Positions 10,611 to 31,247 of a DNA stretch of 57,531 nt are shown piece by piece. Below the pieces are notes generated by a model. That model did not search any database, had not been told where the DNA came from, and saw only the letters and a list, made by a program, of their open reading frames with translations. The stretch covers positions 1 through 57,531 of the forward strand of contig CALRGN010000001.1 in assembly GCA_943357745.1 (NCBI GenBank). The letters run 5' to 3'. Position numbers and translations under genes: made by a program. The stretch's first letter is position 1; each line of letters begins with the position of its first letter. Source of the stretch: Candidatus Uhrbacteria bacterium (GTDB lineage Bacteria; Patescibacteriota; Patescibacteriia; UBA9934).

Positions 10611-10997
10611 TTATTTTTCCTGTCTGGCGTCAGATAGTAAGAAGACTACTTCCAAAAAAATCACTAAACTTATTACAATTGTCATGGTGAATAGTGAAAA
10701 AAGATCAACGGCTAACAAGTATAGGGAAAGCACCATTGCCCCCGAAAGTAGCAACCCCTGCCGTAACGATCTAGCAAAATGTCGGTATAAATCCTTTTCA
10801 GAGAGCTCTCCCCCTCCCCAAATTGTTCCAATGGTTGTAAAAAAACCAACTAAGAAAAATCCTAAAGTGGTATAAAAGCTGTAAATTGATAATGGCCCAC
10901 CTTCAGTGGGGTTAAAATTAAACAAAATGAAAATCAAACCAATTCCAGAAATCAGCGTACCTAGACTTAACATTCCTACATATTTACTTACGGTCAT
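10611..10997 (-). CDS. Hypothetical membrane protein (about 4 TM)
   Basis: Hydrophobic 128-aa ORF co-directional with its neighbours. No recognisable motif. Confidence 0.4.
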   Translation of the reverse strand: MTVSKYVGMLSLGTLISGIGLIFILFNFNPTEGGPLSIYSFYTTLGFFLVGFFTTIGTIWGGGELSEKDLYRHFARSLRQGLLLSGAMVLSLYLLAVDLFSLFTMTIVISLVIFLEVVFLLSDARQEK

Positions 10998-11044: not shown

Positions 11045-11380
11045 TCACTCCTGTGCCCGGTCGGCCGCTCTTCCAAATTTAACCTCCATTTTACTAATAT
11101 TTAATTCGGGAAATTCTTCAGTCAGTGCCGCCACCGTTCTAGGGGAAAATTTTTCTAAAGCAAATTTTGCCGGAGCAGAAAAAGCAAAGATTTTTATCAC
11201 CCCATCCTTGAAACTAACCACTCGCCAATCATCAGGCGAACTGGCTGGTAATTGCCGATTCAGATACCCAGTTGCCGCCAATACCACCGCTCTTGCAACC
11301 AAGGTAACCGCAATTGGTTTTAAATACCTGGTCCCTCTCAATAAATCAGAGATTGGTTGTAAGTTTCTATTATGCGTCAT
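11045..11380 (-). CDS. Possible DUF721 / DciA-like protein
   Basis: 111 aa. WRVVSFKDGVIKIFAFSAPAKFALEKFSPRTVAALTEEFPELNISKMEVKF resembles the DUF721 pattern (one full-length strand with conserved W, followed by L.v.v.s..w..eL). Weak call. Confidence 0.35.
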   Translation of the reverse strand: MTHNRNLQPISDLLRGTRYLKPIAVTLVARAVVLAATGYLNRQLPASSPDDWRVVSFKDGVIKIFAFSAPAKFALEKFSPRTVAALTEEFPELNISKMEVKFGRAADRAQE

Positions 11381-11428: not shown

Positions 11429-14374
11429 TTATCCCAGTTTAGCACTGGGGCAAATTTCATGGAAATCGCAGTTCCCACAAACTCTAACATCAGGCGTAGG
11501 CTCAAAAATACCGCGCTCAATTCCCTCCCCCAAGGCCCTGAAATCTTCTTCTAATCGTTCAAAATCAGAGGCTTTTGGCACAAAAGAGACGGTCTGCCCC
11601 CCAATAACATAATGATAGCTTAATCGCTCCACCGTTTTTGTTGGATACAATGCGTTCACGGCCATTGCATACAAAAGCAACTGCCGCTTATCCTTCCACC
11701 CCAGCTGTTCCTTTATTCCGCCCGTTTTATAATCAATCACCTCCACTCCACCGGAAGATAATTCGTCAATTCGATCAATCTTCCCTTGCAACTGAAATCC
11801 GGCAATCTGAAGATAGAACGGTTGTTCAAGTGCCAAAACTTGGGGCGGGTTAGCTTCCAATGAAATCAGAAACTTATTCAAAGCCTCAATCCCCTGCTCA
11901 AATCTTTGAACCCTCACTTCAACACTTGGGTACCAATCGCCAATAAACGCCCGTTCATACAACGGCCTCAAAGTTGACATCCCCGGCGTCACCGCTTCTC
12001 CACTGCGTAATAATTCCAGATAGTCATGTAGAGCGGCGTGTACGCTTTGACCAAAAGTCACCATTGGTTTCTGCCAACTTGGCACCCCAATCACATGAGC
12101 ATACCGATATTGTAGTGGGCAATTTTCAAAGGCCATTAGCTGAGAGAAACTTAACAAGACTGGTTCGGTTTTCGCTTGGGTTCCCACAAATGGAAAGCCT
12201 AGTGGATCATGGTTGGCTGGGGCTTTAACAGGATCAAGTAATTGATTTGCCCAACCCTCCGGAGCAACAACCGGGATTGTTTCCAATTCAATTCCCGCTT
12301 CATTAATAAACACTGATGGTCTTCTTGCTCTCACCCCTCCGTAACTACTGGCTCCAGTGATCATCAAACCCTGCTTAGCTCGGGTCATGGCCACATAAAA
12401 TAGCCGTCTTTCTTCCGACAAGTTTTTAATTCTAGCGTCTTCGCCACTCACCGGTAAATACCACTTCTCCCCCCGGCTATTCCCGGGAAATCTCTGTTCC
12501 ACTGCATTCACTATAAACACATATTCAAATTCCAATCCTTTTGCGGAATGTACGGTTAATAATTGGATTGCCTCTGGTGATGCTTGTAAGTCTTCAATGA
12601 TTGTCTCTTCACCCAACTCTTCAGCCGCTCTAATTTCCTCTAGAAAGTCTCGGAGACTTTTATCAAGCGCTCGTTTCTTCCAATCGTCAACCCGGCGTAA
12701 AAAACCGTTAAGCTTAGAAAAAATCAACATTTGTTCTACTTCCGGTAAAATAAGAACCTGAGTGATAATTCCGCTTTCTTTGAGAACTTTCAAAATAATC
12801 GCGGTGGGTTCATGAAGCTTCAACTCTTCCCGCCACTCATTAATCTTCGCAACTAACCGCGTGATTTTGTTAATCGCCTCTGGTGAAATTTCTTCACCAA
12901 CTCTATGGGTAAAGGAAGGTAAAAGAATTTTTTGGAGGACGGTCCAGATCGGACTAGCCTCTCGTTTGGCAATATGATTAATTACCACCGCTATTGTTTC
13001 TCCAACTCCGATTGTTTTATTAATAAGCAAACTAAAAACGCTTAAATTATGAAACGGTTCAATGATCACTCTTAAGGCCGCAATTAAATCCATTATCAGC
13101 GGTTCTCTTAGTAATTTATCTCCCCCTTGCGTGTATACTGGCCAACCAGATCTCTCTAGGGCAGTTTTAAAGGGGATTAAATGGTCGTGGGCTCTGGCAA
13201 GAATAGCAATTTCTTGCAACTGTACTCCACCCTTCAATAACTCATCAATTCTAGATCGTACCCACTCCACTTCTCCGTCACCACTCGGCAACATCCAAGC
13301 TTCCACCTGGGCGGAAATTGTGTTAGAAGTAGCGATCAACCGCTTATCAAGTTTTTCTATCACTTCTAGTCGGTTTGGATTATTTGATTGGATCAACTTG
13401 TAGGCTGAATCTAAAATCGCTTGACCACTCCGATAATTTTTCACCAAGGTCAAACTTTTTGCCTGAGGGTAGGCGGTTCTAAACTGCAAAATGTTGTCCA
13501 CCGTCGCTCCTCTAAAACCATAGATTGCTTGGTCATCATCCCCCACCACTAGCACACAGCCATCGGCGCCGGTTAATTCCTTTAGTAATTCAAATTGCAA
13601 CGGATTGGTATCTTGAAATTCATCAACCAAAAAATATCGGTATCTCTCTCGCACTAGCTTGCGTACACTTGGAACTTTCCTTAAAACATCCCTACTTTCC
13701 AGTAATAATCCGGCAAAATCCAAACACTGGGTTTCCCTAAGCATCAAGCTAAATTCATCCAAAGCACGCGCTAATTCTTCCCCTCTAAGAGTTGCGTCAA
13801 TTTTGGCCTCCGCATCCCCCTGCCAAAGATCAGTAAATTTTTTTGATTCAAGAAAATTGCGATAGCTTTCACCGGTAAAGCCCGCCTCTCTTAATCCACT
13901 AATTGCCCCATACAATTCCTTGATCAATTTTGGTGAAGGGCCACTTTCCAGAAATGGGGTCCAAAAACCAAACCTTAAAGAATGGCGTCTTAATAACAAC
14001 ATTGCGTCCGTCTCCGCTAGCCTCTGAAAATTACTCGCCCAACCCAAATGGAGGCCATATTCCCTTAGAAGATTCTCTGAAAACTTGTGGAAAGTATTCA
14101 CAGTAACCCCCCAAGTACCAAGCGGTAGAATACAATCCAATCGCTCCGCCATTTCCGTACTAGCTTTTTCGGTAAAAGTTAATGCCACAATCTCTTCCGG
14201 TTTGAAAGTTTTTTCTTGGATCAACCAAGCAATCCGTTCAGTAATCACGGTAGTTTTTCCGGTCCCAGCACCAGCAACCAGCAATAATTGATTAGATGCA
14301 AAGTGTACCGCCGCCAGCTGCTCTTGATTGAGCGGCATCTTTAAAGTCTCCGGAGCATTTATCTCATTCAACAT
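11429..14374 (-). CDS. UvrD/PcrA-type superfamily 1 helicase fused to a C-terminal PD-(D/E)XK (RecB/Cas4/AddB-like) nuclease domain with a four-Cys cluster
   Basis: Helicase motifs AGAGTGKT, DEFQD, GDDDQAIYGFRGA, NYRS, TVHSAKGLEFEYVF and YVAMTRAK. C-terminal FENCPLQY...GKIDRIDE...IDYKTG...QLLLYA...CGNCDFHEICP. Confidence 0.8.
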   Translation of the reverse strand: MLNEINAPETLKMPLNQEQLAAVHFASNQLLLVAGAGTGKTTVITERIAWLIQEKTFKPEEIVALTFTEKASTEMAERLDCILPLGTWGVTVNTFHKFSENLLREYGLHLGWASNFQRLAETDAMLLLRRHSLRFGFWTPFLESGPSPKLIKELYGAISGLREAGFTGESYRNFLESKKFTDLWQGDAEAKIDATLRGEELARALDEFSLMLRETQCLDFAGLLLESRDVLRKVPSVRKLVRERYRYFLVDEFQDTNPLQFELLKELTGADGCVLVVGDDDQAIYGFRGATVDNILQFRTAYPQAKSLTLVKNYRSGQAILDSAYKLIQSNNPNRLEVIEKLDKRLIATSNTISAQVEAWMLPSGDGEVEWVRSRIDELLKGGVQLQEIAILARAHDHLIPFKTALERSGWPVYTQGGDKLLREPLIMDLIAALRVIIEPFHNLSVFSLLINKTIGVGETIAVVINHIAKREASPIWTVLQKILLPSFTHRVGEEISPEAINKITRLVAKINEWREELKLHEPTAIILKVLKESGIITQVLILPEVEQMLIFSKLNGFLRRVDDWKKRALDKSLRDFLEEIRAAEELGEETIIEDLQASPEAIQLLTVHSAKGLEFEYVFIVNAVEQRFPGNSRGEKWYLPVSGEDARIKNLSEERRLFYVAMTRAKQGLMITGASSYGGVRARRPSVFINEAGIELETIPVVAPEGWANQLLDPVKAPANHDPLGFPFVGTQAKTEPVLLSFSQLMAFENCPLQYRYAHVIGVPSWQKPMVTFGQSVHAALHDYLELLRSGEAVTPGMSTLRPLYERAFIGDWYPSVEVRVQRFEQGIEALNKFLISLEANPPQVLALEQPFYLQIAGFQLQGKIDRIDELSSGGVEVIDYKTGGIKEQLGWKDKRQLLLYAMAVNALYPTKTVERLSYHYVIGGQTVSFVPKASDFERLEEDFRALGEGIERGIFEPTPDVRVCGNCDFHEICPSAKLG

Positions 14375-14385: not shown

Positions 14386-15972
14386 TTATAAATCACCTCG
14401 GCGCCAAATCAAACTCGCCAAAATCAATTCTAAATCTCCAACCTTTTCTCCTTCTGCCGCCAATGTTAACGCCGGTAAATTAAAACGCCCCGGAAAACCA
14501 TATTCAACTTGAATAATTTTCCCCTGCTCCACTTTCCACCAAGTAAAAACCGTACCAGCCGCTGTTTCTATCCCCGCCGCCGTTTCGCCACTAAGTGATC
14601 GCAATTTTTCCAAAACAGATTTGTCCCACGGTTCAGTTGGTTTTATCACTACCAGATTCTCTCTAATCAATCTTAATCCGTCCTTGATTTCATCAATCAT
14701 GATTTCAACTCTTGCTACTACATCTCCGTTTGTCCTGATAAAACGATGTGGCTTAATCACCGCAAACCCCACCTGAAGATCATCTCTCCTCGTATCAAAA
14801 TCTAAACCAACGGCCTTAGCAATCGGGCCCATTAAATTATATTCTAGCGCCTCAACTCTAGTAATAGATCCCAAGCCTTCTAATCTATCCTGCACCACTT
14901 CTCTATACCAACCCAACTTCAACAATCTATTAAAATCAACTTCGAATTCCTTCAATTTAACTTTAATCATTTTTAGTTCAGTTTCACCAACCGTAATATT
15001 CACCCCAAAAATAATTAGTGCCCCCAAACCAAATCTATTCCCACAAATTAAAAATAGCAGTTGTCTAATTGTTTCTATTAATTCTAGAGCTAATGCCACT
15101 AAACTAAAGATCCCCAGTGCCCGATAAATTTCCATAATCACCTCAAGAAATCTAGTTAGCCGTTCTAATTCCAAAAGAATCACTCGCCAGGCAATGGCAT
15201 CCCCAGATAGAAAATCCCTTTTCTCTATCAGTTGATTTTCAAACAATCTCTCCCACGCCTGGACAGTTGAAAGCGCCAAACTAATCGCCCGCAGTGGCTG
15301 TCTTCTCCCCTGAACTGCGAGCGCCTTATCTAACGACATGCCAATTATCAGCTCCTCTCTTTCTCTCGTCGGCAAATGTTGATCAAGTTTAACCGCTAAT
15401 ATTCTCCCACGGTTCCTCTGCAAAGGAACTTGTCCGTAATCTCTCCAAGGCGGATAACTCTCCAAACTTCTTTCTACCGGAACATTAGGAAACCGCTCTC
15501 CCAACAACTTGGGCCACATTCCAATTGGGTTAATCTCTAATCGATTTGCAACCGCCCGCTCCTCCCACCACGCCCCGGGAGAAACAGTAAAAATTCCTTC
15601 ATAACTCTGTCCCGATATCACCAAACTAGATAGTTTCACCAATTCGCCTGTCTCCGGATACAACAATAATACCGATAAGGTGCCCGTCGGCGCTTCTGTA
15701 AAGATTTTGACCAACTTCAATCCCCCTCCGGTCAATCCCCCACCGGTCAACCCCCCACCGGACCTGCCACCACCAGCCAGTCCGCTGACAGTAAGTCCGC
15801 CACCGATCAATTCACCGCCCACCAAACCACCATCGGTCAAAGTTCTACAATTAATCAATTCATCAACAACCTTGGTAAGTTTTGAAATTAAAACCTCCCC
15901 CACCCAAAATCCATTAGACCTAGAGGTAATTGTAACCCCAGTAAGAATTTGAATCAGTTCTGATACATTCAT
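14386..15972 (-). CDS. Highly divergent NuoC-NuoD fusion-like protein (complex I 30-kDa plus 49-kDa / group-4 hydrogenase large-subunit-like) lacking NiFe or quinone-site cysteines
   Basis: SPGAWWEERA resembles NuoC PAANWYEREA. WRVILLELERLTRFL, ICGNRFGLGALIIFGV, GLGSITRVEALEYNLMGPIAKAVGLDFDTRR, GDVVARVEIMIDEIKDGLRLIRENL and the C-terminal FPGRFNLPALT...DLELILASL parallel Thermus Nqo4 / E. coli NuoD blocks. Only 2 Cys in the protein. The ATG at 15972 forms an ATGA overlap with the upstream stop. Confidence 0.7.
   Translation of the reverse strand: MNVSELIQILTGVTITSRSNGFWVGEVLISKLTKVVDELINCRTLTDGGLVGGELIGGGLTVSGLAGGGRSGGGLTGGGLTGGGLKLVKIFTEAPTGTLSVLLLYPETGELVKLSSLVISGQSYEGIFTVSPGAWWEERAVANRLEINPIGMWPKLLGERFPNVPVERSLESYPPWRDYGQVPLQRNRGRILAVKLDQHLPTREREELIIGMSLDKALAVQGRRQPLRAISLALSTVQAWERLFENQLIEKRDFLSGDAIAWRVILLELERLTRFLEVIMEIYRALGIFSLVALALELIETIRQLLFLICGNRFGLGALIIFGVNITVGETELKMIKVKLKEFEVDFNRLLKLGWYREVVQDRLEGLGSITRVEALEYNLMGPIAKAVGLDFDTRRDDLQVGFAVIKPHRFIRTNGDVVARVEIMIDEIKDGLRLIRENLVVIKPTEPWDKSVLEKLRSLSGETAAGIETAAGTVFTWWKVEQGKIIQVEYGFPGRFNLPALTLAAEGEKVGDLELILASLIWRRGDL
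15718..15834 (-). repeat. In-frame G+C-rich tandem repeat encoding DGGLVGGELIGGGLTVSGLAGGGRSGGGLTGGGLTGGGL in the NuoC-like N-terminus
   Basis: Repeating ccaccggtcaa / cccccaccgg units on the plus strand and a GGGLT periodicity in the translation. Confidence 0.85.
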
Positions 15973-17390
15973 AGTCTCCACCACTCACTTGTGGTTAATG
16001 CCCCCATCAACCCAAAATCAAACCCGATCAAAAGCCAAAAAATAAAGGCATAAATTTTATTGGTTGATCTATCCTCATTGAATGATAGATGTTTCAGAGA
16101 TTTTTTTGGCGATTTATTTTTTGTAATCTCCCTAAACCAAGCCAGCAAAGATAATCTTAAAAAGTATAGCCAAATAATGGTCCAGATCCAAACCGCCCCA
16201 GCCGAAATTGTAATTCCGGTACCCCACCAAAGAATAATAATTAATCCTAGCAATGATCCTGGTAGGCCTAATTTACACCAAAGATAGGCGGTGCGCATTC
16301 TAGGATACTGCTTAGGATTATCAATCTTTACCAAAGAAATACCGGATTTAATCCAAAACCAATAAGCACCAATCAGTAACCATTCATGAAAGAAAATCAG
16401 AATCACAATTGGTGAAACCGCTCCGGTAATCAGAGCAAAGAGTGGCGCTAGCCCTAAACTAAGTGAGGCAATTCTAAGATCTAATCCGTAAAAGTTATCA
16501 CCATAAAAAATCTCTTCGCCCAAAACGGTTTTTTTGGTTTTATAATTGCGCCACGGTACTATGATGGTTACGGATAAAAATATTAGAAATGTGACCAGCG
16601 CAATAACTCTTAGGTGATCGGTGGGCCAACCCAGACTTCCTAACTTGGTCATTATTGCTAGCCACCAACTTATTAATGAGTATTGTAACCAAATCGGGAT
16701 AATAATTGAAATCCAGCGATTACTCCTTATCACACCAATTTCACTCCAAGTTGTGTATGGCCACCAGCCTAATTCCAACAAGATTCCTACCGATATTAAG
16801 ATCCAGGAAAGATCATTGGACCAAACTCCACCCAATGGCCAATAGATCGTCATCAATCCACCGCCAAGACACAAAAAAGCTACCATGTGCAATTTAAATG
16901 CTCGCCAAACAACCGCCATATCCATACCATCTCCGCCACGCGCGATCCCTTCCAAGCCACAGATAGCAATCAGTTGAACCAATAGAAATTTTGCAAGATC
17001 ATTTTCCAAAAAAGAACTAGTAATTAACCCGATTATCAAGACAAGCCAAATTAATTTTTCTCCCGTCATTTCACTATTCAATAATAACTTGCTTTGATAT
17101 TTGTTTGGATTAGAGACTGCCACTGATCCAATCATAGACAATCCAATCGCCACGAGCAGGAAGGCATAATCCCAACCATCTAAATTGATCTCTGGTAGAT
17201 TAAGTAACGTTGATAAAATAAATCTCCCCTCACCACTCCAAATAGCCACTCCAAGCTCAATCCCAATCAACAGCAACCCCACTTCCACCAAAAAAAGCCA
17301 CGGAATCCTGGCCGCTTTAACAGCGGGCAACGGCAACAGTCCCCAGACAATCGCCAGGAACAATAAAATTAAACCAAATATCATTAACAT
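15969..17390 (-). CDS. Polytopic membrane protein, possibly NuoL/M/N-MrpD antiporter-like subunit
   Basis: 473 aa with at least 12 predicted TM segments. A mid-membrane Glu (LIAICGLEGIA), GWWPYTTW and KLGLPGS stretches are reminiscent of the proton-conducting transporter family. Operon context. Confidence 0.4.
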   Translation of the reverse strand: MLMIFGLILLFLAIVWGLLPLPAVKAARIPWLFLVEVGLLLIGIELGVAIWSGEGRFILSTLLNLPEINLDGWDYAFLLVAIGLSMIGSVAVSNPNKYQSKLLLNSEMTGEKLIWLVLIIGLITSSFLENDLAKFLLVQLIAICGLEGIARGGDGMDMAVVWRAFKLHMVAFLCLGGGLMTIYWPLGGVWSNDLSWILISVGILLELGWWPYTTWSEIGVIRSNRWISIIIPIWLQYSLISWWLAIMTKLGSLGWPTDHLRVIALVTFLIFLSVTIIVPWRNYKTKKTVLGEEIFYGDNFYGLDLRIASLSLGLAPLFALITGAVSPIVILIFFHEWLLIGAYWFWIKSGISLVKIDNPKQYPRMRTAYLWCKLGLPGSLLGLIIILWWGTGITISAGAVWIWTIIWLYFLRLSLLAWFREITKNKSPKKSLKHLSFNEDRSTNKIYAFIFWLLIGFDFGLMGALTTSEWWRL

Positions 17391-17391: not shown

Positions 17392-18033
17392 TTAGCGATC
17401 TATTTCAATTTCCGGATTAACGGAATCATAATTTAATTGATAGTGACAAATAGCATTCCAAAGCAACCACCAATGAATCAAACCTATCACTAATATGATC
17501 ATTTGCAAATAGTCTGATTCAGTTGATTTTAATCCAATGATCCCCACCAAACCCAACCAAAATACGCCAAACCCAATCCCCGCCTCTGCTCCGCGCCCCA
17601 CATAAAATCTTACCAACCCCACTACCGTAGCCAGGCTCGCCACCAACCACCACCAGTCAAAAAATTCTAAATTTTCTTTTGGAATTGACAACCCGTAGTA
17701 TCCAATCATCACCCCAATTAGAACAATTATAAATCGTTCCTCAAAATGTCGTTTGAATTGAGTTCTATATTTGATCAACCTTTTACCCCGTTTATCGTAG
17801 AATAGCTTGTAAAGGACGGTTATGCCCCAAATTAGATAGCATCCAAACATCAACACCATATTTAACCTTCCCTCGGTATTGATCACTTGCCAAATACCAA
17901 GAATTACAATCAAAGAGAGCAAACTATTTCCAAGCGGGATCGCCCTAGTCTTACTCATGAAGGAAAAGAGAAAAATGATTCCAACTACCGCTAACCACTC
18001 TCCATTGAATCCATAAAAAATTTCGTTTAGCAT
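17392..18033 (-). CDS. Small polytopic membrane protein of the Nuo-like operon
   Basis: 213 aa with about 6 TM segments, 1 nt from the next gene. No motif recognised. Confidence 0.35.
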   Translation of the reverse strand: MLNEIFYGFNGEWLAVVGIIFLFSFMSKTRAIPLGNSLLSLIVILGIWQVINTEGRLNMVLMFGCYLIWGITVLYKLFYDKRGKRLIKYRTQFKRHFEERFIIVLIGVMIGYYGLSIPKENLEFFDWWWLVASLATVVGLVRFYVGRGAEAGIGFGVFWLGLVGIIGLKSTESDYLQMIILVIGLIHWWLLWNAICHYQLNYDSVNPEIEIDR

Positions 18034-18068: not shown

Positions 18069-18953
18069 TTAATAAAAATTTGATAACCAAACCACTAGAG
18101 CTAATGTTTCCATCAGAGCAACAAATCCCAAGTACCGCCACAAAAAACCGGTATCGCGTTTGCAAGTAATTAATTCAAAAATTGCAAATATGAGCAGACC
18201 CAAACCTCCGGAAATAATAAGAGCGGATTGGCTCAGCCAATTGAGCTGACTGAGTATTAGAGAAATAAACAGATACCCGGCCAATGTGATCTGCATCCAC
18301 TCCCCCCACACTTGGCCACAGATTAACCAATTATAATCTTCTGAAATATGGTTGTCTAAAAAAAAGTCTTGCCGTTTTCTAAAGGGCGAACTGCCTAATA
18401 CAATTGGTAATAGAATCGCTCCAGAAATCCCAAGCAGAATTAAAGCGGTGCTTGTTTCCTGACTAAAGTCTGTTTGTATGATGGCGCCCCAATCACCAGA
18501 GACAAATAGGGATAGTAACCAAGCTCCAAAAAACCAGAACGGGGAGCTAACCCAAAACCGGAGCGATTGCTCATAATTATCATCCTTGATAAATTCCCCG
18601 GCTCGTAAAAGATTACTCCCCAGCATAAGTACCCACGCTAACCACCACCAACCAACCAAAGTCCAATAATCACCCCCAGGTAAAGCCGTATAATCCCAGT
18701 TATACCACGGTAGGCTTAAGAAAATTATAATTAAAGCTAAATTAGCTAAAATTATCATCCCGCCACTTACTCTCTCTTTTAGTGATAACCCTTTCCAACT
18801 AACAGTAATATTAAGGCTCCATCTGATTTGACTAAAACCGTGCCAAAGCAAATCGTGCAATAATTTACCAAATAACCCCACCGTAAAGACAATAAAAAGC
18901 CAGCCCAGCAATTGAACACTCCCAAGCACCAGCCACTTTAATACTTCAACCAT
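18069..18953 (-). CDS. Polytopic membrane protein, weakly NuoH/HycD-like
   Basis: SSPFRKRQDFFLDNHISEDYNWLICGQVWGEWMQITLAGYLFISLIL loosely parallels Nqo8 [37 protein letters not shown]. Start placed at the internal Met (18953). The ORF track start is 19004. Confidence 0.3.
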   Translation of the reverse strand: MVEVLKWLVLGSVQLLGWLFIVFTVGLFGKLLHDLLWHGFSQIRWSLNITVSWKGLSLKERVSGGMIILANLALIIIFLSLPWYNWDYTALPGGDYWTLVGWWWLAWVLMLGSNLLRAGEFIKDDNYEQSLRFWVSSPFWFFGAWLLSLFVSGDWGAIIQTDFSQETSTALILLGISGAILLPIVLGSSPFRKRQDFFLDNHISEDYNWLICGQVWGEWMQITLAGYLFISLILSQLNWLSQSALIISGGLGLLIFAIFELITCKRDTGFLWRYLGFVALMETLALVVWLSNFY

Positions 18954-20506
18954 AAAATTCCAGCAATTATCGCGAGTAAACAATAAAAAGGGACCAACGA
19001 CCAATCAAGTTTAGCGAGAACTTTTGTGCTATGGGTTTTAAATATTTTACAAAATTTATCAAAAAAATGATAAACCTTAAAATAAATCCACCCCCCTTTA
19101 AAACCGATGGCGTTAAAATTTTCTAACCAAAGCTCATTCCTTCCTGATTTCACTCCAATTAGTCCAAGATACCAGCCACCTAACATCCCAATTCCAAGTA
19201 GATACACCAATAATTGGCACCAAATCAGAATTATCATCGCTACGCCAATCCCATTAATTTCAAGGACGCCATCGGCCCAACTTCTCCAAATATCATCAGA
19301 TAAAAACAAATTTAATTGAATTTGGATAATTTTCCAACTTAGAGCTGTTGGCATAAACCAAAAGAATAAAATCACCAATCCAAAACCTCCAAGGAGAGTA
19401 GCGTTGCCCTTCCGCCACCAGCTGGAACACCACTGCCCACCCATTACCGTAAAAAGAAAAATTAGACTTATCCAAAGCGACTGCCTAATTCCTGACTCCG
19501 CCAACGGATTCAAGGCGGTAGCGGATAGCATCCCTTGAATAATTACGGTATTAAAAATAAAAAGTAACATCAAATCACTCCAACTTCTAACCCCCAAGTT
19601 GCGATAGTTCCTTAAGCGAGTCAACAAAACAGCAATTCCACCAACATTTAGAACAAGCACCGTTATAAGAAAGATTGGGGTATTGGCAGGGTTTAACCAA
19701 AAAAATATAATTCTAAAAATTAGATACAAGCTGGTTAGGATCTGAAGTATGCTCACCAGGTCAAACCCCCACTCATCAACAATCGGTTCATTTTCTTTGG
19801 CAGTGGTTTTCCCCCAGTCCCGGCTGATTGTTCTAAAATAACAACCCATCAAAATAGTCCCCACCAAGCAAACATTAAACCAATTAGTGAAACCAAACAA
19901 ACCCATATCAACCACCGCCACTTCTACAAATAGTCCACCGCTAAATACGGTTACCGTTGTAAATACAATTAAGACTGTAAAAATCAGCATCCAATCTTTA
20001 CCGGGGAGGACATGTTTTTCCGTCTGGCCTGCCAGAATCGACTGTGATCTCCACTCCATGATTGCTAAACCGAATAATAATAAAGCTAACATTATTATAT
20101 TTCCAGCCAATAAAAAACTATTCATCAAACCCAAATAGATCAAAGTCCATCCCCCCGACACTCTCATTGACCCGTTGTTTTTCTCTTTCCACCTCTGAAG
20201 CTGATGGAACAAAAAACTGAGCGAACTAATCCCCAAAAAATGTCCGGCAAATCTATCCAGATGCCAGTTCATACCAAACATAACCGGATTGAAAACTCCC
20301 CATTGGTAGGGCCAAATCAAGCCATCATTCCCACCAAAAACCACTATCACAGAAACAATTATTCCTAAAACCGCACTTAGTATCACAATCCTTCCACTCC
20401 AACCTCCTCTTCGGCCGTACTCCAATCCTAACCCAAGCCACGGCAATCCTATTACTCCTATCAGCAAACAACCAAGTAATAGGTCATTCATAAATATTAA
20501 TTTCAA
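18938..20506 (-). CDS. Polytopic membrane protein, possibly NuoL/MrpA antiporter-like subunit
   Basis: 522 aa with many TM segments. WHLDRFAGHFLGISSLSFLF...LLAGNIIMLALLLFGLAIMEW resembles the N-terminal D.lS..f...WE region of Nuo L/M/N. ATGA overlap with the NuoB-like gene. Confidence 0.4.
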   Translation of the reverse strand: MKLIFMNDLLLGCLLIGVIGLPWLGLGLEYGRRGGWSGRIVILSAVLGIIVSVIVVFGGNDGLIWPYQWGVFNPVMFGMNWHLDRFAGHFLGISSLSFLFHQLQRWKEKNNGSMRVSGGWTLIYLGLMNSFLLAGNIIMLALLLFGLAIMEWRSQSILAGQTEKHVLPGKDWMLIFTVLIVFTTVTVFSGGLFVEVAVVDMGLFGFTNWFNVCLVGTILMGCYFRTISRDWGKTTAKENEPIVDEWGFDLVSILQILTSLYLIFRIIFFWLNPANTPIFLITVLVLNVGGIAVLLTRLRNYRNLGVRSWSDLMLLFIFNTVIIQGMLSATALNPLAESGIRQSLWISLIFLFTVMGGQWCSSWWRKGNATLLGGFGLVILFFWFMPTALSWKIIQIQLNLFLSDDIWRSWADGVLEINGIGVAMIILIWCQLLVYLLGIGMLGGWYLGLIGVKSGRNELWLENFNAIGFKGGWIYFKVYHFFDKFCKIFKTHSTKVLAKLDWSLVPFYCLLAIIAGILWLKY

Positions 20507-21175: not shown

Positions 21176-22639
21176 ATGCTATGCTTTAACCCTATGAATC
21201 CATCAAATACACCCCATAATTTAGATAAATCAACCAATCCTGACTCAACCCCAAAGCCAGGGGAATCTCCTTCCAACCGCGTCCCTTCAACTCCAATCGC
21301 GCCCTCCACTCCATTAAAAACCACCCCCCTTTCTATGGCCGAAAAAAATCCCGGGCTGTTGATTGCCAGTATTCTAGGAGTGGTTTTGCTAGCATTAGTC
21401 ACCATGCTCACCATTAACATTAGCAAGAATGTTAATAGCAATGATGGCGATACTGTTGATCCTCGGCAAACAAATAATCAAATCAGACTCAACACCAACA
21501 ATGACCGCGATGCCAGTCAATCCAGCACCAAAACCAGCACCGATAAAAACAAATTTCAAGATCCCGATCAAAATTCCGTCAGTCCCAAATCTTTGAGCGG
21601 TGCGCTTATCAAAAGAACAGTGCCCAATGCTCAATCATCAAAAGCGATTTGCAACGACGGTACTGATTACACCTATTACACTCGCCCGGGGAGTCCGGAA
21701 AATTCCGATAGATGGATTGTGTATTTTCAAGGTGGCGCGGCTTGCAGTTCTGTGGACGCTTGCACTTCCCGTGCCGAGGAAGATCCTGATCTTATTACGG
21801 CGGACACTCAGGCTAGTCGTCTCTCAGACGGAATCCTTTCCAGGGACGAGTCTCATAACCCGGATTTCAATGATTGGAGCCATGTCTTTCTCCCCTATTG
21901 CAGTTCAGATACATGGGCAGGTGATACCACCCACCAAATTGCCAGCGACACTTGGTATTTCTACGGCCACCATATAGTTACAGCCGTGGTGGACGAACTT
22001 TTAAACGGGGTAGGCGACATGCCCAAGTTAAGTGATTCTACTGATCTGATGGTGGTGGGCAGTTCAGCTGGAGGTGGTGGTGTTCAGCTGAATTTAGATC
22101 GAATCTCTGAAACCGTCCATGCTGTTGATTCAGCTGTCAGGATTACCGGCGTACTCGATAGCGTTTGGGGTTTCCTCGTTGAACCATACGCTAGTCGAGA
22201 AGATGCTTATGGAAATGTGCTGTCAGAAGGAGAAGCGATCGAATTCCACAACACCATTGGCGATCAAAGTTGTGAAGCCGCCTCTTCTGCCAACGATGAC
22301 GGCTGTAAAAGTACTGACACCCTGTTGCCGTACTTGAGTACTCCCGTTTTTATTTATATCGATCAGCGGGATAGTTTAAAACTTTCCCGAGTGGGGATTG
22401 ATAATATGGGTAAGGATCCAGCTCAACGTGCCTATTGGGAGGAAACATGGCAACCAAATTTACTCGCTTCGCTTGAAGGTCTTACTGGACTTTTTGCACC
22501 AGTGATCGGAAAGCATACATCCTTAACCAGCGATCGTTTCTACACCGTAAAAATAGACGGCCTTAACTTTGCTGATGTGTTAGGCAACTGGTATTTTGAT
22601 CGATCAGGCCCCAAATCTGTCATTGCAGAACAACCTTAA
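21176..22639 (+). CDS. Membrane-anchored pectin acetylesterase / Notum-like (PAE family) carbohydrate esterase
   Basis: CNDGTDYTYY..WIVYFQGGAACSS, GILS...NPDF.DWSHVFLPYCSSDTWAGD, YFYGHHIV and GSSAGGGG (GxSxG) are colinear with plant PAE motifs. A Pro/Ser/Thr-rich N-terminal region is followed by one TM. The true start is uncertain (21176, 21194 or 21335). Confidence 0.6.
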   Translation: MLCFNPMNPSNTPHNLDKSTNPDSTPKPGESPSNRVPSTPIAPSTPLKTTPLSMAEKNPGLLIASILGVVLLALVTMLTINISKNVNSNDGDTVDPRQTNNQIRLNTNNDRDASQSSTKTSTDKNKFQDPDQNSVSPKSLSGALIKRTVPNAQSSKAICNDGTDYTYYTRPGSPENSDRWIVYFQGGAACSSVDACTSRAEEDPDLITADTQASRLSDGILSRDESHNPDFNDWSHVFLPYCSSDTWAGDTTHQIASDTWYFYGHHIVTAVVDELLNGVGDMPKLSDSTDLMVVGSSAGGGGVQLNLDRISETVHAVDSAVRITGVLDSVWGFLVEPYASREDAYGNVLSEGEAIEFHNTIGDQSCEAASSANDDGCKSTDTLLPYLSTPVFIYIDQRDSLKLSRVGIDNMGKDPAQRAYWEETWQPNLLASLEGLTGLFAPVIGKHTSLTSDRFYTVKIDGLNFADVLGNWYFDRSGPKSVIAEQP

Positions 22640-23931
22640 ACCAACCGTCGCGCCACTTGATCAACATCACCCGCTCCCATCACCAGTAAAACATCTTTTG
22701 GTAGGATAATTTGACGGAGCAACGCTTCGGCCACCTCAAGATTCAAGGCGTAATGTCCGTGCGGATGGTTTGTGGCTTCTAGCAATTGCTTGCTACTCAC
22801 CGTTTCAGTGGCCGTTGTCCGACCAGTAACGCCGTATATTTCGGACAAAACGAGTTCATCCGCCAAATCAAAACTTTTAGAAAATTCCTCAAAAAAATCC
22901 ATCGTCCGCCGGTGCTGATGGGGCTCAAATAACAAAACAATCCTCCGATCAGGATAAAATTCCCGCACTGCTTTAAGAGTAGCCTTAATTGCGGTTGGAT
23001 GATGGGCGTAGTCAGAAATCACCGTTGCCCCCTTAAACTCTCCCACCACTTCAAATCGTCGCCAAATTCCGCGATAATTTTGCAAAGCGATATCAATATT
23101 AGTGCGATCGGAGTCAGCACTCAGCCAATTAACCACCGCCCGCGCCCCCGCCGCATTGGCGCGATTAAAGATTCCTGGCACCAATAATTTCAATTCGCCA
23201 AGATCAGACGCGCTATATTCCACCAGCCGATTACCACTCAATTGCGCACTATGAACATCATCCTTATTAACAAACACCACGCTAGTAGTCTGCTCCGCCA
23301 ATTGCTGAAACCCAGCCACCACGCCACTCAGATCACCATAAATCTCCAGATGATCCGCTTCAATATTAGTGATTAGAGTAATCGCTGGCCGTAAACTCAA
23401 CATCTTCCGCTTATATTCATCCCCCTCTATCAACAAGATCCCCTTTCCTTCATTCTGTACCTTGCCTATTCTCAAATTCCCCAGTTTCCACCCCGGCACC
23501 ACCGACCCCACAAATACAGTGGGATCCATTCCAAGCGCAATCAAACACTCCGCCAACATCGCCGTTGTGGTGGACTTACCATGCGTTCCAGTAACACAAA
23601 TAACGAAATAATTATTGGCTAATTCCCCAAAGAATTCAAAGTGTCCCAGCGTTTTGATGCTCCTTTTTTTTGCGGATATTAACACTACATCGGTGATAGG
23701 AACCGCTTCCGAGTAAACCACCAGATCAACCCCAGTAGGCAGTTCAGTTGGACTTTGACCAATCGTAATCTCACCGCCCAGCGCTAGCACCGCATTAGTC
23801 TGATCACTTACCACCAGGTCACATCCAGATACGCGTTTCCCGTTTGCCAAAGAAAACTTAGCAACGGCACTAATTCCAATCCCACCCGCTCCAACCGCAT
23901 AGAGATGAGTGAATTCATCAAGAAAACTCAT
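22636..23931 (-). CDS. murC: UDP-N-acetylmuramate--L-alanine ligase
   Basis: GAGGIGISAVA Rossmann N-terminus, GTHGKSTTTAM P-loop and Mur ligase central/C-terminal domains. Confidence 0.85.
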   Translation of the reverse strand: MSFLDEFTHLYAVGAGGIGISAVAKFSLANGKRVSGCDLVVSDQTNAVLALGGEITIGQSPTELPTGVDLVVYSEAVPITDVVLISAKKRSIKTLGHFEFFGELANNYFVICVTGTHGKSTTTAMLAECLIALGMDPTVFVGSVVPGWKLGNLRIGKVQNEGKGILLIEGDEYKRKMLSLRPAITLITNIEADHLEIYGDLSGVVAGFQQLAEQTTSVVFVNKDDVHSAQLSGNRLVEYSASDLGELKLLVPGIFNRANAAGARAVVNWLSADSDRTNIDIALQNYRGIWRRFEVVGEFKGATVISDYAHHPTAIKATLKAVREFYPDRRIVLLFEPHQHRRTMDFFEEFSKSFDLADELVLSEIYGVTGRTTATETVSSKQLLEATNHPHGHYALNLEVAEALLRQIILPKDVLLVMGAGDVDQVARRLV

Positions 23932-23933
23932 AT

Positions 23934-24236
23934 CTAATCCGGTTTTCGTTTTGCAATTTGATTCTTCAGTTGATCCTTAGCTAAATCAATCGCCGCATAC
24001 AGATCATCTTTCACTATCCGCAAATGAATACTTGGCCCGGGTAAAATACAATTTACTTCCGCAAAGAAAATCTCGCCCTTTGCATGGTGTTTGCTATCCT
24101 TACCAACTCTAATTTCCAAATCAAACGGTTGATACCGAACCGTCATTTTTTCTAGTTGACCAAATTTCAATTCAATAAACTGATTAATCGCTGGAGTGAG
24201 TTCTAAATTCTGCCCTTCAATTTTTATAATACGCAT
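23934..24236 (-). CDS. hpf: Ribosome hibernation-promoting factor / RaiA family (short form)
   Basis: 100 aa. The MRI.I.G.N.ELTPAI..FIE.K...L pattern is typical of the sigma-54 modulation protein / S30EA family. Confidence 0.75.
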   Translation of the reverse strand: MRIIKIEGQNLELTPAINQFIELKFGQLEKMTVRYQPFDLEIRVGKDSKHHAKGEIFFAEVNCILPGPSIHLRIVKDDLYAAIDLAKDQLKNQIAKRKPD

Positions 24237-24240
24237 AGAT

Positions 24241-25227
24241 TCATATTTCTAAATTAAGTCCAATCAAACTTAATTCCTCTTGTAATCTAATTCCAAATTT
24301 CTCATAAATTCCCCTTTTAATTAATTTTATTAATTGAGAGATTTCGCTCGCTCTAGCCTGACCCAGATTAACCAAAAAATTTCCATGACTTAATGATACC
24401 TCCGATTGACCGACTCTGGTTCCTTTAAACCCCGCCTGTTCAATCAACCAACCAGCCCCCAAACGATGCGCTTGGAGCATCTTGGCAGGAACGATAGTGA
24501 CTTTAAGTATGCGTTGTAATTGCTCCTCGGTAAAATTTTCAACATTCACAAACACACATCCAGCTGATGAAGTACCAAACGGTTGCGTTAATTTTCTCTG
24601 CTGTAAAAAATCAGAAAGCTTTGCCACACACCTCTTTGGGTCCGCTGGTGCTAACTGAAATTCCGCCACAACAACAATCGTCTGCTTGTAGTCCTTATTT
24701 TTCAGAATTGAATGACGATAGCTAAATTCCAGTTTTTCTTTTTCCCACTGTTCAATCACCCCATTATGGAGCACCGTAACAGCAAGTAGATGATCGGAAA
24801 TTTCTCCTCCAAAACAGCCGGCATTGCCCCGCACCGCTCCCCCAATCGTTCCCGGAAGTGAAATCGCCCATTCTAATCCGGTCAATCCCTGCTCGGACGC
24901 TTGCCTAGCCACCGAGGCAGTGATTGCCCCCGCTTCCGCCACTAGTCGATCTCCCTCAATCTTCACTTCTCTAAAAGCAATCTTTATCACTAGTCCCAGA
25001 TAACCTTCATCCGACGCCAAAGTATTTGATCCTCCCCCTAAAACCACCCAATCAACAGCAAGGTCATTCGCCATTTTAACCCCCGCTTCTAAATCAGCCC
25101 CGCTTCTCACTTCTAAAAAATAACGCGCCGGGCCCCCCACTCTAAAATTCAAATGCCTAGAGAGCGGTTCATTCTCCTTAAACTGGGCGCCAAATCGCTC
25201 TCTAAATCGTTGCGGAGCGGTATACAT
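24241..25227 (-). CDS. murB: UDP-N-acetylenolpyruvoylglucosamine reductase
   Basis: FRVGGPARYF, VLGGGSN and GAGWLIEQAGFKG motifs. TATAAT lies 6 nt upstream of the ATG. Confidence 0.85.
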   Translation of the reverse strand: MYTAPQRFRERFGAQFKENEPLSRHLNFRVGGPARYFLEVRSGADLEAGVKMANDLAVDWVVLGGGSNTLASDEGYLGLVIKIAFREVKIEGDRLVAEAGAITASVARQASEQGLTGLEWAISLPGTIGGAVRGNAGCFGGEISDHLLAVTVLHNGVIEQWEKEKLEFSYRHSILKNKDYKQTIVVVAEFQLAPADPKRCVAKLSDFLQQRKLTQPFGTSSAGCVFVNVENFTEEQLQRILKVTIVPAKMLQAHRLGAGWLIEQAGFKGTRVGQSEVSLSHGNFLVNLGQARASEISQLIKLIKRGIYEKFGIRLQEELSLIGLNLEI

Positions 25228-25270
25228 ATCCCTATTATATTACAATATATCCGGAAATTAGCCAAATAAT

Positions 25271-25298
25271 TTGACGGCATCTATATTTCTGCTACACT
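25271..25298 (+). promoter_or_regulatory. Sigma-70-type promoter (TTGACG - 16 nt - TACACT) for the G+C-rich ORF at 25331
   Basis: Hexamers read directly from the sequence. The same TAYACT -10 form recurs upstream of rplU, glyA and the other orphan ORFs. Confidence 0.5.
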
Positions 25299-25330
25299 AT
25301 CTGCGCTCAACCCACAACCTAGGAGGGACC

Positions 25331-25666
25331 TTGAGCGTTACCATCCAGCTATTTTTGAACCCACCCCCCGCCTTAAGCAAGCGAAAAAAAGAACGATTCG
25401 TGACAGCGGTCCGGAGGGAGTTTTTCACTCACTGTACCGCGCTCGCTCTGGCCCCCGAGTTCCACAACGTGGATCACGGTCCCTACAAGCTCGAGCTCAA
25501 GTTCCGTTCCGATCAGCCCGACGGAAGCGGTGTCCGTATTGACGGCGCCACTGCGCTCGATGGCAGCAGCCTTGAACGGCTCACCACTTGGGCAACTGGG
25601 GTTTACTCAGCCCGGATCGCCAACTGCCCAGGTGCGTCCGTCTCTGAGGCACAACCGTCGGTCTAG
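25331..25666 (+). CDS. Orphan hypothetical protein (111 aa), G+C-rich cassette A
   Basis: AGGAGG at 25321-25326, 4 nt before a TTG start that is in frame with the 25271 ORF. 37/60 G+C in line 25441-25500. Followed by a strong hairpin. No recognisable domain. Confidence 0.45.
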   Translation: MSVTIQLFLNPPPALSKRKKERFVTAVRREFFTHCTALALAPEFHNVDHGPYKLELKFRSDQPDGSGVRIDGATALDGSSLERLTTWATGVYSARIANCPGASVSEAQPSV

Positions 25667-25690
25667 TCCCGTCGTTCTCTCCCCCCCCTT

Positions 25691-25730
25691 CGCCCGCCCC
25701 GCGTCTCTTCGCGTGGCGGGCGCTTCATTT
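25691..25730 (+). terminator. G+C-rich hairpin (about 13 bp stem) followed by a weak T-tract, downstream of cassette A
   Basis: cgcccgcc-ccgcg-tctctt-cgcg-t-ggcgggcg followed by cttcatttcc. Confidence 0.5.
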
Positions 25731-25766
25731 CCATAAAAACAACCTTTCCCGTATACTTCAGAACAT

Positions 25767-27017
25767 ATGTCCATCACACCAAACTCCCCTTTATCAATCC
25801 AAGATCCGGCCATTGCCTCCGCCATCAACGCCGAGGCGCACCGTCAACAAACCTCCCTAGAACTAATCCCCTCAGAAAACTTTGTCTCCCCCGCCGTATT
25901 AGAGGCGCTTGGTTCGGTCGCCACCAATAAATATGCGGAAGGGTATCCCGGCAAAAGATATTACGGTGGTTGTGAAAATGTTGATGTGATGGAAGACCTC
26001 GCCCGAGATCGCGCTAAAGCGATTTACGGCGCTGAGCATGTCAATGTCCAATCTCATTCCGGCGCCCCCGCTAACATTGCCGTTTACGCCGCCCTACTCT
26101 CCCCCGGAGACACCGTGCTAGGAATGGATCTCTCTCACGGCGGTCATCTCACCCATGGTCATCCCGTTACGGACTCCGCCCAGCGGTATAACTTTCTTAG
26201 ATATAAAACTACTCCGGAAGGAACGATTGATTATGATGCTCTCGAGGCCACCGCCAAAGAACACAAACCTAAATTAATTTTGGTAGGCTACTCCGCCTAT
26301 TCAAGAGAAATTGATTACAAGCGGGTCAAAGAAATCGCTGAAAGCGTGGGCGCTTTTGCGATGGCAGACATTGCCCACATCGCCGGTTTGATTGCCGGCG
26401 GTGAAATGAATAATCCGGTACCATTTTTTGATGTCGTTACCACCACCACTCACAAAACTTTAAGAGGTCCGCGTGGTGGCATGATCATGTGTCAGTCCGC
26501 CCTCGCCAAACAAATTGATAAAGCGGTCTTCCCACTATTGCAAGGTGGACCACATATGAACACTATCGCCGCCAAAGCGGTCGCCTTTGGTGAAGCTCAA
26601 GAACCAGCCTTCAAGCTCTACGCCAAACAAATCAAAGCAAACGCTCAAGCCCTCGCCACCGCACTTACCACTCGTGGCTTTAAGCTAGCGTTTGGTGGAA
26701 CGGAGAATCATTTAATGTTGCTCGACCTCACGAGTAAAGCCATCACTGGCGGAATTGCCCAAACCGCTCTAGACTCCGCCGGCATCACTTGCAACAAAAA
26801 CATGATTCCGGACGATCCCCGATCGCCAATGGATCCTTCCGGTTTACGGCTCGGCACGCCCGCTATTACTACTAGAGGTCTTAAAGCCGAGCAGATGGCC
26901 AATATCGCCCATTGGATTGATCAAGCTATTCAAAATCATGCTAACCCCATCGCCCTCGCCAACATCAAGGCTGAAGTAGCGGATTTCATGAACCCTTATC
27001 CGTTGTTTCAAAAATAA
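25767..27017 (+). CDS. glyA: Serine hydroxymethyltransferase
   Basis: [22 protein letters not shown] and [14 protein letters not shown] (PLP lysine) motifs. Confidence 0.95.
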
Positions 27018-27054
27018 TTTTGAGTTATCAATCACTCCCACCTCAATTTCAAAT

Positions 27055-29270: not shown

Positions 29271-29337
29271 CCCCTTCCCCTTCCCTCCGGAAGCGGTTAC
29301 TCTATCCTCATCCCCGCTTCCAAGTTCAGCCCCAAAA

Positions 29338-30858: not shown

Positions 30859-30888
30859 ACTGTCCCCAACTCTTTATTTTTTTATAAT

Positions 30889-31185
30889 ATGTTTCAAAAA
30901 CTAAAACAATTCAAAGAATTACGGGATCAAGGTAAACAAATGAAATCACTGATGGATGAGGTGATAATTGTTGGATCAGACAAAGCCAACTTAGTGATGA
31001 TTACCTTAAACGGTAGTCATGAAGTTCTGGGAGTAAAGGTGGCCCCAGATCAAGAACCGGCTGTTTTAGAACAAGCCATCAAACAAGCGCTCACCGATGC
31101 CAACTCAAAGTTGCAGAAAGAAATGGTCTCGCAAATGCAAAAAAACGGTGGCGCAATGGAATTTTTAAAAAAGCTCGGTACCTAA
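30889..31185 (+). CDS. ybaB: YbaB/EbfC family nucleoid-associated protein
   Basis: 98 aa in the conserved ybaB-recR arrangement. MFQKLKQFKELRDQGKQMK start and a coiled pattern. Confidence 0.75.
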   Translation: MFQKLKQFKELRDQGKQMKSLMDEVIIVGSDKANLVMITLNGSHEVLGVKVAPDQEPAVLEQAIKQALTDANSKLQKEMVSQMQKNGGAMEFLKKLGT

Positions 31186-31218: not shown

Positions 31219-31247
31219 AACGATAACTCCCAATCGGTCCTAAACAC

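Follow-up and report, generated by a model that had tools for sequence, protein, structure and literature searches.

The window analysed here, a 57,531-nucleotide stretch of a Candidatus Uhrbacteria contig (CALRGN010000001.1, positions 1 to 57,531), carries a minus-strand gene for a 528-amino-acid (aa) protein that is a fused NuoC-NuoD protein with the two-domain fold of HycE and NuoCD. It is very likely that this protein is an EhrL-type large subunit and that it has lost the catalytic residues of its relatives. It is encoded at the end of a tight run of six minus-strand genes that overlap or nearly abut and whose products are 181, 517, 294, 213, 473 and 528 aa long. We think it rather likely that the six genes encode an Ehr-type membrane complex in which the large subunit would serve as a non-redox structural cap. 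The Ehr complexes are energy-converting (Ech-)hydrogenase-related systems whose large subunits lack the NiFe cysteines (PMC6349859, PMC10284858); in the Geobacter nomenclature used below, EhrA stands for a NuoL-like and EhrC for a HyfE-like protein, with EhrL as the large subunit and EhrS as the small one (PMC7894505).

Fold, ligand positions and junction of the large subunit

The 528-aa protein matched the Pfam family PF00346 (Complex1_49kDa) with a score of 72.5 bits (E 4e-20), where the gathering cut-off is 24, while the NCBIfam models for NuoD, FpoD and NdhH matched it at 70-80 bits, far under their equivalog cut-offs of 360-522. The best phmmer matches in the PDB were MbhL (6CFW), the large subunit of the membrane-bound sulfane reductase MBS (6U8Y), Nqo4 (2FUG) and HycE (7Z0S), with E values of about 1e-8 to 1e-9 for the first three. 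PF00329, the NuoC family, gave no match even at E<=10, either for the whole protein or for its N-terminal 184 aa; of the two Pfam families that had been suggested for alignment in a preliminary description of the sequence, only PF00346 was recovered. Both parts of the protein were covered by a profile built from 66 fused homologs with the protein itself left out, which aligned the NuoD part over residues 188-525 (E 3.5e-65) and the NuoC part over residues 88-156 (domain E 5e-6). These profile positions follow a 532-aa open reading frame (ORF), and four is to be subtracted from them to reach the 528-aa numbering used for all other residues. The glutamate and arginine of the 'WWEER' motif in the NuoC part are invariant in one of two alignments described below (A1).

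A confident AlphaFold2 model was obtained from an alignment of 150 homologs, with a predicted local distance difference test score (pLDDT) of 85.9 and a predicted template modelling score of 0.89. When this model was searched with Foldseek, the best match was the fused E. coli HycE (7z0s_E), with template modelling (TM) scores of 0.78/0.78, and the NuoCD proteins of E. coli and Aquifex gave 0.76-0.77 (7p7l_C, 0.77). Many 49-kDa chains also matched, with a Foldseek probability of 1.0 and a target-normalised score (TMt) of about 0.8; NuoD-only chains reached a TM-score or coverage of about 0.6 of the query, as against 0.77-0.78 for the fused HycE and NuoCD chains. Because the profile and the whole-chain structural matches support both domains, we take the NuoC-NuoD fusion to be real, as the preliminary description had proposed, and the N-terminal part is read, with the help of the model, as a diverged NuoC-like domain. 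It is hardly credible that the similarity to NuoC and NuoD is spurious or that the ORF is not a gene. The absent PF00329 match and the low NCBIfam scores would fit such an explanation, but the PF00346 score is three times its gathering threshold, an exhaustive phmmer search of 1.84 billion cluster representatives returned 794 homologs at E<=1e-3, the profile E value and the structural match to HycE point the same way, and the ORF is kept with a low ratio of nonsynonymous to synonymous substitution rates (dN/dS).

The ATG start of the gene, at position 15972, follows a GGAG at a distance of 6 nt and forms an ATGA together with the stop of the preceding gene; the public gene call gives an identical 528-aa product. 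A GTG four codons upstream of this ATG accounts for the 532-aa frame in the mechanical ORF list. The product contains exactly two cysteines, C42 and C310, a count that the preliminary description had given correctly, and two histidines. The NuoC-like domain holds a Gly-rich insertion of 42 residues that is disordered in the AlphaFold model. A 15-bp tandem repeat (three copies, 93% matches in Tandem Repeats Finder) lies at 15717-15761 and encodes, on the minus strand, three consecutive GGGLT units; in a sister strain from Hainich groundwater one of these units is missing, and the protein there is 523 aa long instead of 528.

Ligand columns were mapped against hydrogenase-type and NuoD-type homologs in two MAFFT alignments, A1 and A2. 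In A2 the cysteine positions of the L1 motif (RxCGxCxxxH) are occupied by Q225 and R228 and its histidine position by L232, and the column of the complex I quinone tyrosine (Nqo4 Y87, in 'DRxDY') holds P226. The C-terminus, which ends ASLIWRRGDL, has no L2 cysteines and no DPCxxC or equivalent in the alignments, in agreement with what had been read from the sequence beforehand, and both C42 and C310 lie outside the L1 and L2 ligand positions. The segment KLDQHLPTRE, which had been placed at the position of the RxCGxC / GPQHPSxHG motif, aligns instead with a third motif, (Y/F)xH(R/K)GxEK.

Counted from the 'ER' motif of the NuoC part to HRGxE, the protein spans 67 residues, compared with 74-122 (median 101) in 54 fused homologs, so that the junction between the two domains is the shortest among 55 fused proteins. 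In the profile alignment, 31 residues of the protein face 65 model positions, a shortfall of 34. The preliminary description had put a loss of about 30 residues between KLDQHLPTRE and the helix WRVILLELERL; the size was close to the mark, and the place was not, since the gap lies upstream, at the NuoC-NuoD junction, and the interval from KLDQHLPTRE to the ELERL helix is in fact slightly longer (62 residues) than in 110 homologs (50-59). In the homologs this junction is made up of the NuoC tail, a variable linker and a hairpin of two strands, beta1 and beta2, joined by a loop (GPxHxxxxEPGHF). This loop motif holds the quinone-binding histidine of complex I and provides the coupling between the site and the membrane arm. 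No GPxH motif was found in the protein in either the alignments or the profile; the 66-homolog profile leaves the whole junction unaligned, and in the AlphaFold model the junction is of low confidence and the beta1 strand is absent. A clean deletion of the beta1-beta2 hairpin was considered and dropped: alignment A1 places the gap in the hairpin, while in A2 the hairpin is set against VPVERSLESYPPWRDY and the gap falls in the linker. What is robust in the sequence comparison is the shortfall of about 34 residues and the loss of the loop motif only.

As judged from the aligned columns, the protein is without all of the NiFe cysteines, the L1 histidine, the complex I quinone tyrosine and the beta1-beta2 loop motif. 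Because these catalytic ligands are absent, a structural rather than a catalytic role is likely. The preliminary description had reached the same view of its function; the absence of ligands on which that view was founded was borne out, and the structural role itself is argued from the missing residues.

The six-gene operon

The nearest relatives of the large subunit (P0015, P0018, P0020, P0022 and others) are cysteine-less fused proteins encoded in Ehr-type loci. The gene order in these loci, with product lengths in aa, is A (655-696), B (316-335), C (190-217), D (446-496) and L (528-546), optionally followed by S (177-253); where their products are recognisable by Pfam, A and D match PF00361, B matches PF00146 and S matches PF01058, with none for C. 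The order, sizes and transmembrane counts of the window operon agree with those of four reference Ehr loci. About 11, 7, 7 and 12 transmembrane segments were counted in the 517-, 294-, 213- and 473-aa proteins, and the same crude method gave 13-15 for A, 7-8 for B, 6-7 for C and 10-14 for D in the reference loci. The 517-aa protein is about 150 aa shorter than EhrA of other loci.

The five neighbours of the large subunit were searched against Pfam (up to E<=10), NCBIfam and the PDB, against custom Ehr profiles, and by pairwise comparison with shuffled sequences. None had a match in Pfam (at E<=1 or E<=10), in NCBIfam or in a phmmer search of the PDB, the 213-aa protein giving a sub-threshold MrpC-like NCBIfam match (E 0.065), and BLASTP against the neighbours of Ehr large subunits was not significant. 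Hidden Markov models of the A, B, C, D and S subunits were made from four to five loci, together with a set from the two closest loci, and 1,800 shuffles served as controls. Only the S profile placed its own cognate first, and hhalign returned P=0.02 for S, P=0.03 for C and nothing for B. The pairwise shuffle z-scores likewise singled out only the pairs of the 181-aa protein with EhrS and of the 213-aa protein with EhrC. The latter pair is a reciprocal best match with EhrC of a metagenomic locus (L092; E 9.5e-4 and 2e-4). Paralogy between the 517- and 473-aa proteins was not detectable.

By eye, and without statistical support, two segments of the 473-aa protein resemble motifs of NuoL/M/N-type subunits: 'GLEGIA' (around E147) the 'WEGVG' of the fifth transmembrane segment, and 'ELGWWPYTTW' (around E208) the 'KLGxxPFHxW' of the seventh, with glutamate in place of lysine. 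No CxxC-like cysteine pair was found in any of the six proteins, and no ferredoxin-like subunit in the operon. In a promoter and terminator scan of the operon, counts were the same as in shuffled sequences, with only a weak -35/-10 pair upstream of the first gene.

The 181-aa protein, encoded by that first gene, has no match in Pfam (including PF01058 at E<=10), NCBIfam or the PDB, and a single 97%-identical copy in public data. It is colinear with the PF01058-positive EhrS proteins of L092 and of a locus from Entomobacter blattae (L084), with semi-global z-scores of 6.9 and 5.8 that were equalled by 0 of 500 shuffles; the alignment sets 'IAVGG-EAFGQELRALYG...FVSKPELAQIWILVG' against 'IATGGCGACGQELSALSG...FVRTPQQAHYLLLTG'. 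When the 181-aa protein was used as the query, EhrS ranked first of 1,295 ORFs taken from unrelated loci (E 0.008), and when EhrS was used, the 181-aa protein was the top match among 219 window ORFs (E 0.0013). The EhrS profile puts it in the same register as the pairwise alignment. The four cysteines that bind the [4Fe-4S] cluster are replaced in it by F, N, I or a gap, and its single cysteine, C37, is elsewhere. In our view the 181-aa protein is probably homologous to NuoB/EhrS; should it be something else, the operon is without any small subunit. The coordinates of the six genes, and of the parts of the large subunit, are given in Table 1.

Table 1. The six operon genes and the regions of the large subunit. 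Coordinates are those of the window; residues are in 528-aa numbering; TM, transmembrane (TM-score where so written).
Feature	Coordinates	Strand	Basis or remark
EhrL-like gene, fused NuoC-NuoD / HycE-type large subunit	14386..15972	minus	528 aa, 2 Cys; NCBI name 'hypothetical protein'
NuoC-like N-terminal domain (putative), residues 1-152, with conserved 'WWEER'	15517..15972	minus	fused-homolog profile, alignment A1, whole-chain TM-score
Gly-rich insertion, residues 44-85, in the NuoC-like domain	15718..15843	minus	no counterpart in any A1 homolog; pLDDT <50
Shortened NuoC-NuoD junction, residues 153-183, WPKLLGERFPNVPVERSLESYPPWRDYGQVP	15424..15516	minus	profile, motif spacing
NuoD / [NiFe]-large-subunit-like domain, residues 184-528	14389..15423	minus	profile, PF00346, PDB matches
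L1 motif (RxCGxCxxxH) position, reads QGRRQPLRAISL	15277..15312	minus	column mapping, alignment A2
C-terminus ELILASLIWRRGDL, L2 motif (DPCxxCxxR) position, no Cys	14389..14430	minus	alignment
473-aa polytopic membrane protein, EhrD position (NuoM/N-like)	15969..17390	minus	order, size, TM count; stop overlaps start of the large-subunit gene
213-aa, ~7-TM protein, EhrC position (HyfE-like)	17392..18033	minus	synteny, size; weak reciprocal match to EhrC of L092
294-aa, ~7-TM protein, EhrB position (NuoH-like)	18069..18953	minus	synteny, size, TM count only
517-aa, ~11-TM protein, EhrA position (NuoL-like)	18938..20491	minus	synteny; weak z=3.5 to EhrA of L084
181-aa soluble protein, probable NuoB/EhrS type, amphipathic N-terminal helix	20503..21048	minus	colinear similarity to EhrS

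Distribution, selection and competing explanations

The window belongs to a small, Uhrbacteria-like groundwater bacterium: its TypA protein is 85-86% identical to those of metagenome-assembled genomes of Patescibacteria and Ca. Uhrbacteria, and the rest of the window consists of ordinary housekeeping genes of the Candidate Phyla Radiation (CPR), with no hydrogenase, Hyp, formate dehydrogenase (FDH) or respiratory genes within its 57.5 kb. The large subunit is a singleton that forms its own cluster of four sequences and is an orphan at 50% identity. In the exhaustive phmmer search its best relative outside this cluster had 32% identity (E 5e-20), and a word-index search of 5.8 billion proteins returned its own cluster and matches at 25-29% identity only. 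No match came from GTDB genomes scanned with the protein. Taken together, some 15 billion proteins contained no relative more than about 32% identical to it. The cluster names of the top relatives are Binatia, Aquificota, Aquicultor, Deltaproteobacteria and Entomobacter, with no CPR among them.

The whole operon is present in the Hainich sister strain, whose copy NCBI assigns to a 'Patescibacteria group bacterium', and the six ORFs are intact in both strains. Between the two, dN/dS for the six genes is 0.10-0.31, a range like that of MurB, MurC and UvrD. There is thus modest evidence that the operon is under short-term purifying selection, only modest because the divergence between the strains is small. 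The neighbouring block RecR-YbaB-DnaB-(454 aa)-FolD-GlyA-MurB-HPF-MurC (22636-31847) is syntenic in two contigs of distant Patescibacteria (L097 and L098), at identities of 45-46% for MurC, 70% for DnaB and 74% for GlyA. In those contigs MurC is followed by SecA/SecDF and not by the esterase gene, the Ehr-like operon and the UvrD-like helicase seen here, which places the operon at a synteny breakpoint and is compatible with a lineage-specific acquisition.

The esterase gene (21176-22639, plus strand) is divergent from the operon and encodes a 487-aa protein with a pectin-acetylesterase domain (PF03283, E 8e-47) and a low-complexity N-terminus rich in Ser, Pro, Thr and Asn; its called length is 481, 480 or 410 aa across strains. 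Directly downstream of the large-subunit gene lies the gene of a large, AddA-like UvrD/PcrA-type helicase (11429-14374, minus strand; 969-981 aa) that has a C-terminal PD-(D/E)XK nuclease domain, and a second UvrD-type helicase is encoded at 53795-55840. Next come a 111-aa hypothetical protein without a Pfam match (11045-11380, minus strand), for which dN/dS is about 1.2 between the two strains on very few substitutions, and a 128-aa membrane protein (10611-10997) that is identical between them at the protein level. Rfam and tRNA scans of the window detected only two tRNAs (Thr-CGT and Gly-CCC), at 39830-40017, far from the operon. The GC skew of the plus strand is persistently negative (cumulative -6 over 57 kb) and minus-strand genes are in the majority; together these indicate that the window probably lies within one replichore.

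If the six genes are read as an Ehr-type complex, their order would be a probable EhrS/NuoB-like subunit, proteins in the EhrA, EhrB, EhrC and EhrD positions, and then EhrL. Such a complex would be incapable of hydrogenase, quinone-reductase or N2-type electron-transfer chemistry. EhrL and EhrS would most likely have been kept because they cap the NuoH-like subunit structurally on the cytoplasmic side, and the membrane module would most likely run with no input of redox energy, plausibly as a secondary cation/proton translocator of the Mrp-like kind. Ion translocation by the membrane module is a guess, by analogy, that we hold to be possible and somewhat short of an even chance. Likewise tentative is the broader proposal that the operon encodes a cofactor-free machine of the complex I/hydrogenase type, with a complete NuoB/C/D-like remnant of the Q-module, devoid of Fe-S cluster, NiFe site and quinone residues and with its coupling loop truncated, kept under selection on an Ehr-type arm.

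Several results weigh against the reading as a non-redox Ehr-type complex. The assignment of the 517-, 294- and 473-aa proteins as EhrA, EhrB and EhrD is one of synteny, size and topology only: no similarity of these proteins to NuoL/M/N, NuoH, Mrp or Ehr subunits was detected, and neither PF00361 at E<=10 nor profiles built from Ehr A and D matched the 517- and 473-aa proteins. The alignment of the 213-aa protein with EhrC is weak and not colinear. For the 181-aa protein, the match to EhrS, made in small databases, has no more than moderate significance (E about 1e-2 to 1e-3), hhalign gave it a probability of 2% at P 0.02, and its AlphaFold model, made from a two-sequence alignment, has a pLDDT of 44 and meaningless Foldseek matches; its gene, moreover, stands at the front of the operon and not after EhrL. 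The dN/dS values rest on few substitutions (dS about 0.03-0.06). It is also possible to reconcile the absence of ligands with an unconventional cofactor, or with a partner encoded outside the 57.5-kb window.

This last point is the core of the explanation that the complex is still a redox enzyme, with unconventional ligands or cofactors or with an electron-input module encoded elsewhere. Pairings of Ehr with FDH or NuoEF-like modules have been proposed (PMC6349859, PMC7894505), and the genome is covered here over 57.5 kb only. Against this stand a large subunit with two cysteines and two histidines in total and neither residue at any ligand position, a probable small subunit whose one cysteine is at none of the four cluster positions, the absence of a cysteine pair from all six proteins and of a ferredoxin-like subunit from the operon, the absence of hydrogenase, Hyp and FDH genes from the window, and the missing beta1-beta2 loop motif; we regard a surviving redox function as very improbable. 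A decaying relic of a once redox-active Ehr or hydrogenase cluster, drifting and with no present role, would account for the disappearance of all catalytic ligands, for membrane subunits diverged past recognition, for the lack of any relative above ~32% identity among the 1.84 billion cluster representatives, and for an operon that lies where synteny breaks down and is missing from the genomes of related Patescibacteria. In both strains, however, the six ORFs are intact, closely spaced and of conserved length, their dN/dS values are like those of housekeeping neighbours, and the confident AlphaFold2 model implies that the fold has been kept; CPR genomes, being streamlined, seldom keep 6.6 kb of dead genes. 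A relic is therefore unlikely, and if a slowly decaying relic were all that it is, the operon would be a curiosity.

Purifying selection without a recognisable antiporter signature would also be expected of a functional non-redox complex with some other role, for example as a scaffold or organiser, a sensor or another kind of transporter, in which the NuoCD-like protein would be a binding platform. The variable, disordered Gly-rich loop could then be an interaction element, and the shortness of the protein in the EhrA position would also fit. Positive evidence for any specific alternative of this kind is lacking, however, and all characterised relatives, namely complex I, the membrane-bound hydrogenase MBH, MBS, formate hydrogenlyase and Mrp, are ion translocators, so that such a role keeps a small but appreciable chance.

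To our knowledge, Ehr complexes are widespread and their function has never been determined, and CPR bacteria are without respiratory chains. In complex I, how the peripheral site drives the membrane arm is still debated. If the reading of the operon as a non-redox, Ehr-type complex is true, the cap formed by the NuoB/C/D-like proteins does something that does not depend on electron transfer, and the operon offers a minimal, metal-free target for structural work; redox-independent ion handling would form part of the management of membrane potential or pH in CPR bacteria. If the operon does encode a cofactor-free machine, the peripheral 'catalytic' module of this superfamily can be kept solely for structure or gating on an arm that translocates ions, and the operon would amount to an experiment of nature in which redox and transport, the two halves of the complex I architecture, have been taken apart.

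Comparison with known systems

Mrp-type cation/proton antiporters are comparable by functional analogy only, as a redox-independent multisubunit module related to the membrane arm of complex I. Mrp has no NuoB-, NuoC-, NuoD- or NuoH-like subunits, and the window operon has no PF00361 or Mrp signature above threshold. Complex I itself, in NuoCD or Nqo4+Nqo5 (7P7L chain C, 7Q5Y chain B, 2FUG chain 4), shares the fold (TM-score 0.77) and the lack of a NiFe site, and in known structures this part sits on NuoB and NuoH. It keeps the loop histidine and the tyrosine beside cluster N2 for quinone reduction, whereas the protein described here has a shortened, non-alignable junction and P226. The E. coli proteins HycE (7Z0S chain E) and HyfG are likewise NuoC-NuoD fusions of similar length, and HycE is the best structural match at 16% identity. 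The Hyf operon order (L-like, H-like, ..., HyfE, HyfF, HyfG) resembles that of the window operon. In HycE the L1 and L2 cysteines are the NiFe ligands, and the protein depends on Hyp maturation and on the Fe-S partners HycB, HycF and HycG, none of which is present in the window operon.

Among the closest known systems is Ehr, as found for example in Geobacter sulfurreducens (GSU0739-45; EhrA-D, EhrL and EhrS); the loci L082 and L093 are of this kind. It shares the fused NuoC-NuoD large subunit without NiFe cysteines, and its order of NuoL-, NuoH-, HyfE- and NuoN-like subunits followed by the large subunit is matched here by proteins of similar sizes and transmembrane counts (PMC7894505, PMC6349859, PMC10284858). 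Typical Ehr small subunits keep the four cysteines of the [4Fe-4S] cluster, often with a fused 2x[4Fe-4S] domain, and are typically encoded last, whereas the 181-aa candidate has none of the four and is encoded first. Typical EhrL keeps the GPxH...EPGHF hairpin, in contrast to a junction that is 34 residues shorter and without the motif, and typical EhrA, EhrB and EhrD match PF00361 and PF00146, while their counterparts here match nothing.

Two alphaproteobacterial Ehr loci may also be compared with the window operon, that of Entomobacter blattae (CP060244.1; P0022, L084 4942-12168) and the metagenomic L092 (P0134, 4134-11183). Both have six genes in the order A-B-C-D-L-S, four membrane subunits without a Pfam match, whose homology to the recognisable Ehr membrane subunits likewise escaped detection by sequence, and a cysteine-less EhrL; paralogy of their A and D subunits was not detectable, and they are the only loci with reciprocal best matches to the 181- and 213-aa proteins. 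They differ in host, the present operon being from a CPR bacterium, in an EhrS with all four cluster cysteines and a PF01058 match, and in an EhrL with a beta1-beta2 hairpin of normal length. These loci may belong to a wider class of degenerate Ehr complexes.

Within the CPR, a monophyletic clade of Ehr-like subunits without NiFe cysteines has been described, which 'likely cannot interact with H2' (PMC7304191, Jaffe et al. 2020). It shares with the present protein a CPR host, a group-4 relationship, the lack of metal-binding cysteines and a patchy distribution that suggests gene transfer. An operon, a small subunit and the hairpin are not described in PMC7304191, and the protein studied here has no relative above ~32% identity. 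It is established, then, that Ehr complexes and cysteine-less large subunits exist, including in CPR bacteria, and that their function is uncharacterised. The gain over this literature is one of degree rather than a new kind of system: what goes beyond the published CPR Ehr is the apparent loss of the Fe-S cluster from the small subunit, the short junction, the moved small-subunit gene, the variable Gly-rich insert and the extreme divergence.

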